A stretch of DNA of 64,000 nt from Sarea resinae (GCA_026026165.1 JAPEUD010000013.1:62001-126000), one strand, 5' to 3'. Numbered from the stretch's first letter, positions 12,998 to 14,949 are shown. Translations and numbers: made by a program. Notes: generated by a model from the letters alone, not told the origin.

Positions 12998-13050
12998 CGA
13001 TGGGCGATGGGCGATGGGCGATGGGCGATGGGCGATGGGCGATGGGCGAT
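12998..13050. repeat. Heptamer tandem repeat (CGATGGG)n upstream of ANP1
   Basis: Directly visible. Confidence 0.95.
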
Positions 13051-13908
13051 GAGCAATTCTTATTATTGTGGTGCAAGTACGTGGCTTCAACGACTTGGAC
13101 CGATGATGGGGCTCGGGCTCCCTGACTGTGGACACTGTAGGGAATTACGAATTAATCCAAGGTCGACTACGACTAGCCCTGGAGCAGCAGTAGAAAGATC
13201 CCTTGAGTTACGAATTCATCTGAGCTCGTCGTACCGGTCAGGTACCTGCCAGGTCTCGCGTCGCCGCCGAGGCCATACTCCACCGCGCACAGATCGGTCA
13301 TGAAGAGACCGATCCAATACTTCCAGCCCTTCCTCTCTTGCCCTCCTCGCTCCCCGTACTGTACGACTCCATGTCGCCCCCAACTTTAAACTCGTCCCTC
13401 TCAAATTCGGACTTCCGAATCAAGTTACTGGCGACACGAGCATGTTTCGAAATTGAGGTTTGCGACAAAGTGCGTACGACGTCAGATGGAGACATCGGAA
13501 AAAAGGGATGATCGGAATCTCTTATCCATTGTCTCGGATTCATATCGTAGATCTGCTGCCTCTTCCCTCATATCTCGTCCGAAGCAGATCTATTGCAACT
13601 GCTACTGCTATTCAGGGCTGAACACCATCGTAAGATAGTACCTCGTATTCAAAGGGAGGCCAGGACGGGCTGATATACGACATATTATACGACATATACA
13701 ACATAATCGGCGGGACACTATCTCAGCTAGTCTCTAGACTTCACACGGCACGACTGCATCTATTTAGAGTAATGAGTTTTTGTATATTGTCGATATTCAA
13801 GTCCATTATTTCGTCACCGTCATCCTTGAGTCAGATGCAAGTCTACCCGATCATGTCAGTGAAGCACTTGCGAGGTAACAACGACATGAATTTGACAAAG
13901 GGAGCAGA

Positions 13909-14158
13909 GCGCTCAGATAAGCCGGGTTTACTCAAACCCTCCTACCGGCCTCAAGTCCAAACTGCCCAAGACGGACTGACCAGACGCAAGGCTCTGAAGC
14001 CAACATGACACGCGCGCCCTTTCTCTTCCCGAAGGATTCGAAGCGGACGCAATACAACTCCACAACCTATCATCCCTAGCCGAAGCCAAGTCCGGTGCGG
14101 GAGGGTGGCTCGGCAGGAAGGACTTCGTTGAATGGATAGACTGTTGTCATCGTGGCGC
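13909..14158 (-). ncRNA. Long (about 250 nt) structured box C/D RNA, family unassigned
   Basis: A terminal GCGC/GCGC stem flanks box C variant ACGATGA (14153-14147) and box D CTGA (13916-13913). There is a long-range stem (14105-14092 with 13948-13937) and two C(UUCG)G hairpins. It lies inside the third host intron. Confidence 0.72.
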
Positions 14159-14293
14159 GGGGTTGACTCAGAGAAAGTATAGCTTACCTATTGGCGGGGA
14201 TGTGGTTTCTTTGTTCCTAGATGTAAGCTATATGGTGTCAGCCGTCGTCCAAGCAAGAGCATTGTAGAAAGCGATAGCAGAAGCCAAAGATAT

Positions 14294-14391
14294 GAACCAG
14301 GATCAGAAAATTGGTAAGATTGGTATATGGGTATCATCAATGTTGTTCAGTAGCAGAACTGATAATTATATTTTTTCATCATAAGAGGTTC
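14294..14391 (-). ncRNA. snR61: Box C/D snoRNA, snR61 family; predicted guide for 25S Am1133 (yeast numbering)
   Basis: Box C ATGATGA (14382-14376), guide CAGTTCTGCT before D' CTGA (14350-14347), C' TGATGA, box D CTGA (14306-14303) and flanking stem GAACC/GGTTC. The guide plus a downstream CTTACCAA pair with 25S UUGGUAAGCAGAACUG. Confidence 0.87.
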
Positions 14392-14532
14392 AATGGTAGT
14401 TTCGAGAGTGGAGGAAAAAGAGTCTTACCAAATGTCAATGACGATGTCAAGACGACACTGTGAAGTTCTATAGAGAGAATTAGTCTTCTGCATCGAGAAG
14501 AATAGATCGTTTCTCAGCAAGGGCAAAGTGAA

Positions 14533-14612
14533 AGGGTCAGATGGTAGTGCATGTTGTTCAATGGCTCATGGAAATCGCCAGAACTGTGTGTGATAGGTTT
14601 TCCTCATGAAGA
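14533..14612 (-). ncRNA. snR55: Box C/D snoRNA, snR55/U33 (SNORD33) family; predicted guide for 18S Um1269 (yeast numbering)
   Basis: Box C variant ATGAGGA (14607-14601) and box D CTGA (14540-14537). The preceding CATGCACTACCAT pairs with 18S GUGGUGGUGCAUG and puts the D+5 position on U. It matches the U33 3' end as I recall it. Confidence 0.85.
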
Positions 14613-14949
14613 TATGATAGTTGGAGAGAGGACAGGCAAAGGCTCCGTACTCACAGTGATGATGCATAGCACAAGGAAGGAAGGAGTTAGCAAGTAAAAA
14701 CTTGGAAGCTTATTGATGCTCTTGGAGATTGTGTAGGTGCGGTGTGTTGTGGGAGATGCTGAAGAGAAAGACGAAGGGAAAGGCGAAGAAGAAGTTACTT
14801 GGACCAGAAATTTACGAAAACTCGCTTGCGCCAACCCGCGCTTGGGGCTTGGACTTCACCACAGCCTAACGAGCTCAAGCGCCGTCGATCTAGAAATCGT
14901 CGCAGACACGACGAAGCCGCAGTGCGAAGAGAATGATTGCAGCCTCACA

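Follow-up and report, generated by a model that had tools for sequence, protein, structure and literature searches.

The orphan snoRNA CD53 of N. crassa is 212 nt long, has been cloned and seen on northern blots, and is placed on chromosome IV as 'intergenic' in excerpts of the survey that describes it (Liu et al., 2009; PMC2780460). According to the same excerpts, the N. crassa homologues of snR55 and snR61 also lie on chromosome IV (PMC2780460). In excerpts of a second survey, Nc_CD_53, present in several Pezizomycotina, is singled out as the sole C/D family whose members reach 200-300 nt (Canzler et al., 2018; PMC5824354). The best target given there for Nc_CD_53 is column 25S-3500, which was not unambiguous (ICI 0.71, mean mfe -11.56); this column is also assigned to the pseudouridine of snR86 and Nc_HACA_7 (PMC5824354, excerpts). 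The RNA described below is mentioned neither in passages of PMC3596301, whose subject is the snR57-snR55-snR61 cluster, nor in those of PMC8216456. In the literature searched, no mention of CD53 was found beyond the two surveys of 2009 and 2018.

A box C/D snoRNA is a stable RNA bound by Snu13, Nop56, Nop58 and fibrillarin, and other long RNAs of this class are known. U3 is a long C/D-class RNA that carries, besides its terminal C/D pair, an internal closed box B/C motif of the k-turn type. The RNAs snR190, snR4 and snR45 are also long, have short or unproductive antisense elements, and have been proposed or shown to be non-methylating. A k-turn is made of a three-base bulge followed by tandem G.A and A.G pairs, between a regular stem and a non-canonical stem; in the C/D k-turn, position 2 of box D' and position 5 of box C' face each other.

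The RNA analysed here is encoded in a stretch of 64,000 nucleotides from Sarea resinae (GCA_026026165.1 JAPEUD010000013.1:62001-126000), called the window throughout; its features are collected in Table 1. A reading made from the sequence alone had proposed boxes, a terminal stem and an enclosing intron, and all stand at the positions it gave. On the minus strand, GCGC (14158-14155), a single c and ACGATGA (14153-14147) open the element, and TAAACCCGGCTTAT (13930-13917) and CTGA (13916-13913) precede the terminal GCGC (13912-13909).

Table 1. Positions of the long box C/D RNA, of its parts and of the neighbouring elements, counted from the first letter of the window
Feature	Position	Strand	Basis or remark
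Whole box C/D snoRNA, 250 nt, terminal stem to terminal stem	13909..14158	-	window sequence and 35 distinct homologues
Terminal stem, 5' strand GCGC	14155..14158	-	partner 13909-13912
Box C ACGAUGA	14147..14153	-	C at position 2, where U is usual
Guide 1 (D' guide), AUCCAUUC plus position 1	14129..14137	-	D'+5 is A at 14133
Box D' ACGA	14125..14128	-	family form C/A, U/C, G, A
5' strand of the stem just inside D'/C'	14115..14121	-	partner 13937-13943
Junction strands GCC (with 13944-13946) and GAGCC (with 13997-14001)	14107..14114	-	pairing and covariation
Closed internal k-turn-like module	14058..14103	-	CUCC.GCACC, GGA, hairpin CUUGGC-UUCG-GCUAGG, GAUGAUA, GGUUGUGGAG
Variable insertion including the TCC-TTCG-GGA hairpin	14002..14057	-	0 to ~58 nt in homologues, not alignable
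Helix GAGCC/GGCC around stem-loop 13958-13982	13947..13994	-	pairing and covariation
Box C' UGAGUAA	13928..13934	-	UGA-N-UAA kept in the family
Guide 2 (D guide), UAAACCCGGCUUAU	13917..13930	-	first three bases overlap C'
Box D CUGA	13913..13916	-	invariant across 34/34 alignment rows
Host intron	13843..14187	-	GTAAGC 14187-14182, branch-like ACTGAC 13860-13855, TAG 13845-13843
snR61 in the preceding intron	14300..14387	-	RF00476, 68.9 bits
snR55-like RNA in the first intron	14535..14611	-	RF00472, 36.5 bits, gathering score 50

Homologues were collected with a pattern built from two conserved motifs and scanned once over a metagenome collection. The pattern held ATCCATTC and GGGATGATNGGTTGTG; since both are in it, their invariance in the homologue set proves nothing. 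The scan matched 58 loci, 56 of which have a full copy; of the two others, one ends at a contig end (L040) and one was not matched by the 3'-end pattern (L052). The full copies gave 35 distinct sequences, which were grouped by eye into about 17 lineages and range between 192 and 245 nt, counted over boxes C to D (208-261 when 8-nt flanks are included). The alignment used below, A1, holds the window sequence and 33 of the 35 distinct homologues, the near-duplicates L036 and L057 being omitted. In addition, about ten contigs of other organisms (eight from two RNA runs, two from a DNA run) match only 14053-14157, with 80-90% identity, and then diverge; the 5' two-fifths of the snoRNA is thus conserved in other organisms.

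Box C in A1 has the form NGAUGA, N being any base, with GAUGA kept in 33 of 34 rows and GGAGGA as the exception (L024). This departs from the RUGAUGA consensus, as the U before GA is not kept. The flanks that form the terminal stem vary by lineage (GCGC/GCGC, GUGC/GCAC, UUGC/GCAA, AGGUCUU/AAGACCU), and both-side changes are found at all four pairs in the homologue alignment. Over the 17 lineages, cognate flanks pair with -3.28 kcal/mol, compared with -1.56 when flanks are swapped between lineages; none of 5000 permutations was as low. The earlier call of an atypically long intronic box C/D snoRNA is borne out; the 35 distinct homologues keep the boxes.

The gene neighbourhood is conserved as well. 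A branch-like motif followed by YAG starts 44-61 nt past box D in 16 of 17 lineages, and a hexamer resembling a 5' splice site lies 30-53 nt ahead of box C in 13 of 17. At 15 of 16 lineage loci snR61 is found upstream on the same strand, the remaining locus (L007) having no match at the gathering score. The snR55-like RNA of the window scores below the gathering threshold of 50, so it would be missed by automatic annotation; a contig from one public run carries a piece of snR55 about 440 nt off the conserved core. The ~250-nt snoRNA is probably processed out of the third intron of a non-coding gene that also hosts snR55 and snR61.

Four public runs were compared over 13600-14900. A 376-nt contig of an RNA (metatranscriptome) run covers 13788-14154 on the snoRNA strand, with four other letters and nine gap letters; contigs of RNA runs may hold DNA. 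Neither spliced reads nor RNA ends were seen in the run contigs over 13600-14900, where absent splice joints and parts without cover are alike uninformative; nor do the small shares in two of the runs (X3 and X4) indicate a habitat. Two further observations concern the same strand. After the third intron, at 13745-13842, GGATGA and CTGA are separated by ~100 nt and flanked by a weak stem, which may be a further C/D-like RNA or chance, and Rfam gave no match for this stretch. Downstream of the host gene, at ~13025-13085, about eight copies of the heptamer CATCGCC follow one another in a run.

Comparison with Rfam gave nothing for the element at the gathering score, and with E up to 10 the 271 bases alone returned two lncRNA matches due to chance and nothing else. 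This comparison, which had been proposed with the first reading, gave no snR69 or snR71 match with E up to 10, and none for U3, U14 or snR45, in agreement with the opinion that the RNA resembles none of these three. The same reading had called the RNA highly structured. By energy this is not the case: the MFE is -93.2 kcal/mol, compared with -89.1 +/- 5.1 kcal/mol for shuffled sequences (z = -0.80), and 41 of 200 shuffles equalled it. An MFE no better than that of shuffles, an imperfect box C and the lack of an Rfam match are what would be expected of boxes that occur by chance in an intron without any functional RNA. Such an accident is hardly credible in view of the 35 distinct homologues, the covarying stems, the invariant box D, the conserved synteny and the fixed spacing to the branch site. 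On comparative grounds, the element is a genuine, conserved, atypically long, intron-encoded box C/D snoRNA adjoining snR61.

Box C is followed by guide 1 and box D'; a structured insert of ~185 nt then separates D' from box C', after which come guide 2 and box D. Box D' stands directly after AUCCAUUC-N, and box C' 11-12 bases ahead of box D. Position 2 of D' and position 5 of C' covary: the combination is C with G in seven and U with non-G in eight of the 17 lineages (Fisher p = 0.0034, counted over lineages that are not fully independent). The stem just inside D'/C' is also supported by comparison between lineages, cognate strands pairing with -7.09 kcal/mol and swapped ones with -5.51, and four of 5000 permutations being as low. 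This stem uses GGAGGG (13937-13942), which had earlier been paired elsewhere.

For the guides, the target set consisted of eukaryote-type LSU pieces rather than the rRNA of this fungus; they are contaminants of prokaryote assemblies and were found with a 17-base motif of the LSU primer type. The scan gave at least 47 loci, of which one (L077) was identified as LSU_rRNA_eukarya with 1016 bits, the others being judged by motifs only. The pieces cover about the last three quarters of the LSU, to which the target search was confined. A search for an LSU motif in viral contigs gave 13 loci, and none of the eight tested was rRNA. The source of these pieces deserves a remark of its own. Many short contigs in prokaryote assemblies and MAGs (L072-L118) have eukaryotic LSU rDNA motifs; this is contamination worth flagging, and it is confirmed for L077 by its score. 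One record titled as a cyanobacterial assembly (L076:1-4017) carries eukaryote-type LSU rDNA with an insertion of ~1.5 kb between the GTAAC region and GAATGGAT; the insertion contains a long open-looking stretch and resembles a group I intron that carries a homing endonuclease.

The best site of guide 1 is the U of CATGAA[T]GGAT in 4/4 eukaryotic LSU pieces and for 17/17 lineages, the 8-mer being fixed by the search pattern. Because the 8-mer is part of that pattern, it is invariant by construction. It is also present on two loose contig ends that were found by similarity alone, and absent from one loose end merged from two contigs. The duplex has 8-9 bp and energies between -10.1 and -13.8 kcal/mol, which 0-43 other sites equal; it is short for a methylation guide, whose antisense element is commonly about 10 nt or more. 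The sequence-only reading had rated the guide after box C as weak; it turns out to be the one conserved across lineages. Its proposed LSU partner, AAUGGAUGG, scores below the best site GAAUGGAU, and is present in only 5 of 16 LSU pieces, many of the pieces not extending as far as that region. No conserved complementarity stood out between the other conserved elements of the snoRNA and the LSU pieces.

The yeast equivalent of the guide 1 target U is, as we take it, Psi2314, made by snR86, and in budding yeast this LSU uridine is presumably a pseudouridine only. We also take the U at yeast 2254 to be the U of GTAAC. In eight of nine LSU pieces the target U lies 60 nt past the U of GTAAC. Column 3439 corresponds to yeast 2254 in the excerpts of Canzler et al. 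(PMC5824354). When the target U was set to human 28S 3797, the base in 10 LSU pieces agreed with the human table at 9-11 of the 11 modified positions compared. In the excerpted table, human 28S 3797 is a 2'-O-methylpseudouridine (Psi-m) at 100% (PMC6182160). From these registers we infer that the U opposite D'+5 corresponds to human 28S Psi-m3797.

Guide 2 behaves differently in the window and in the family. Across A1, its conservation is limited to (C/U)GGCUU. In the window, it pairs with LSU GTGAGCTGGGTTTA at 14 of 15 positions (11 Watson-Crick and 3 G-U), with D+5 on a G, and the duplex (-19.2 kcal/mol) is the single best site in 3/3 LSU pieces. The match to the peptidyl-transferase strand with D+5 on G, which had been proposed for the LSU stretch GUGAGCUGGGUUUA, is thus confirmed in the window; the stretch itself was found in 7 of 47 loci among the matches listed, one of them identified as LSU_rRNA_eukarya (1016 bits). 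As a trait of the family, this part of the proposal does not stand, since the match is weak in 16 of 17 lineages. Judged from these duplexes, the peptidyl-transferase guide is a feature of the window's lineage. By base identities, and in the numbering of PMC6182160, the target G is the residue after Am4493, which makes the equivalent residue G4494.

One alternative, which the first reading had put forward, is that the main job of the RNA is at the peptidyl-transferase centre, guide 2 on GUGAGCUGGGUUUA either methylating the G beside a conserved Am or acting as a chaperone of the strand. The 14-bp duplex of the window, stronger than that of guide 1, agrees with it. The peptidyl-transferase site is moreover the only match to the conserved hexamer, wobble allowed, common to all five LSU pieces that reach it; positions 3-7 of guide 2 stay paired there in 13 of 17 lineages, and a close relative in an RNA run has no listed change within guide 2. 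However, the other 16 lineages reach only -6.3 to -13.0 kcal/mol at this site, where 5-12 of 15 positions pair and which 0-71 further sites equal in strength. Three lineages are one base shorter before box D, which shifts the D+5 register. In the excerpted rows of PMC6182160, modified positions go from 4493 Am to 4500 m3U, and 4494 is absent. We consider a main function at the peptidyl-transferase centre unlikely, and prefer the methylation directed by guide 1.

The fold of the insert was assessed on the alignment. The whole fold model is 88.2% paired, and both-side changes occur in 22 pairs and 172 cells; none of 500 shuffles equalled it. Slid controls were 34-43% paired, with no more than 55 cells of this kind. 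Constrained to this model, the window RNA has -83.4 kcal/mol. The GCC/GGU junction helix (alignment columns 56-61/242-248) is 89.4% paired with three pairs changed on both sides. In the adjoining GAGCC/GGCUU helix (62-66/185-189), pairing stands at 92.3% and both-side changes at 14 cells, and no shuffle out of 500 was as high; its changes are A-U to G-C in four rows and C-G to U-A in nine. The GAGCC/GGCC helix (192-196/238-241) is 92.6% paired, and the stem-loop helix that it surrounds (205-215/219-230) has both-side changes at 8 of 10 pairs.

Two hairpins and a long-range helix had been drawn in the interior by the first reading. The TGGC-TTCG-GCTA hairpin is upheld by covariation of helix 85-90/104-109. 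The stretch of the TCC-TTCG-GGA hairpin is absent or different in most homologues. The long-range helix CCCTCCCGCACCGG / CCGGTAGGAGGG is complementary in the window, yet it is 77.9% paired in the alignment, compared with 76.6% in shuffles. Two pairings were tried and rejected. The first, this same long-range helix of CCCUCCCGCACCGG with CCGGUAGGAGGG, has one pair changed on both sides, and its columns are taken by covarying helices. The second, guide 2 with GAGCC (14107-14111), is 94.7% paired with shuffles equal, and the covarying partner of GAGCC is GGCUU at 13997-14001.

The module inside the insert has a hairpin, CUUGGC-UUCG-GCUAGG, that covaries, with four of six pairs changed on both sides. 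Its closing helices are 99% paired and nearly invariant, so their pairing is unproven. The arrangement of CGGA and GGAUGAU suggests a k-turn, with the hairpin as regular stem, GAU as bulge, GA opposite GA and then U.G. In the GGA of the module, the A is invariant and the adjoining G is U in 8 of 34 rows, GGGAUGAU being in the search pattern. At 14093, a near-identical relative from an RNA run carries U instead of G, read on the strand of the RNA, which changes CGGA into CUGA, the canonical D-box word. From this model, we infer that the structured insert with its extra k-turn may serve as a protein-binding scaffold.

Such a scaffold would also suit a non-modifying assembly snoRNA, whose short guides tether it to pre-60S and whose insert k-turn brings in a dedicated factor, after the pattern of U3, snR190, snR4 and snR45. 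Several traits fit this possibility: the two conserved antisense elements span no more than 8 and 6 nt, conservation and covariation are mostly in the insert and not in the guides, the closed topology of the module is that of a protein-binding site rather than of a guide, and the family is still an orphan in the excerpts of two surveys. Nevertheless, boxes D' and C' are kept and covary, as an active methylation unit would show, D'+5 coincides exactly with a U whose human counterpart is 2'-O-methylated, and neither a partner protein nor a phenotype is known. A purely non-modifying role seems doubtful to us, and the methylation directed by guide 1 remains our preferred reading.

Taken together, we regard the RNA as a genuine ~250-nt C/D snoRNA, a probable member of CD_53, whose guide 1 is predicted to direct methylation of an LSU U. 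Guide 1 (AUCCAUUC plus one base) would pair with LSU GAAUGGAU and thereby set the U opposite D'+5 as the target. The likeliest job of the RNA is that fibrillarin bound at C'/D' would 2'-O-methylate this U. As a mechanism, D'-guided 2'-O-methylation of the U equivalent to human Psi-m3797 is the likeliest that we can infer, and we give it about an even chance of being correct. The extra k-turn module probably binds a further protein of the Snu13 type, which would stabilise or specialise the particle. In the window lineage, guide 2, extended to 14 bp with GUGAGCUGGGUUUA, may add a lineage-specific methylation of the G or hold the strand during assembly.

If the methylation is true, an orphan receives its assignment, and a modification that filamentous fungi share with animals has an explanation. 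Whether an old scaffold can acquire new guide functions is a question for which the 14-bp match to the peptidyl-transferase strand, specific to the window, offers a clean case. A bolder and rather improbable possibility is a two-armed tether for pre-60S folding, with guide 1 on the domain IV strand around the U equivalent to human 3797, guide 2 on the peptidyl-transferase strand of domain V (to its full extent in the window lineage), and a third, closed k-turn recruiting a factor absent from ordinary methylation guides; if true, a long C/D snoRNP would couple modification at one site to timed folding of the catalytic centre.

The LSU strand bound by guide 2 of the window is also that of snR69, snR71 and N. 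crassa CD27, which guide the Am and the Cm on either side of the G. These RNAs are 85-101 nt long and have D or D' +5 on A or C, whereas the window RNA has it on the G between. An snR69 or snR71 would have +5 on the C or A of GUGAGC, and in the window +5 is G. The guides snR86 and Nc_HACA_7 belong to another class, that of the H/ACA pseudouridine guides, and share column 25S-3500 with the window RNA (PMC5824354, excerpts). By analogy, they and the window RNA could together yield 2'-O-methylpseudouridine, as at human 28S 3797.

The likeness to U3 is in design only, namely in the extra internal closed motif of the k-turn type. The boxes of U3 are A, A', B and C', its pairing partners are the 5' ETS and 18S, and it is not intronic in this way; no Rfam match links the two. 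Likewise, snR190, snR4 and snR45 gave no Rfam match and have different targets, and in contrast to them the window RNA has a canonical D'+5 on a known Nm site.

The closest described system is CD_53. The earlier description of the RNA as unassigned holds for Rfam, where it has no family; in print it probably does not, as the RNA most likely belongs to the orphan family Nc_CD_53. We file it under CD_53 because length, energy range and target agree: it is of the box C/D class, its 250 nt fall within 200-300, and its guide 1 lies on the column of snR86. This membership, which we consider highly probable, was set by length, energy range, distribution and target, and not by sequence comparison. A difference is that the N. 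crassa copy is listed as intergenic, whereas the window copy is intronic behind snR61. The box layout, the fold of the insert and the extra k-turn of the window RNA do not appear in the excerpted descriptions of CD_53. The family is the one box C/D snoRNA of exceptional length in filamentous ascomycetes, with orphan status since 2009. Our comparison supplies it with a box layout, a covariation-backed fold with an extra k-turn-like module, a fixed genomic home behind snR61 and a concrete candidate target.
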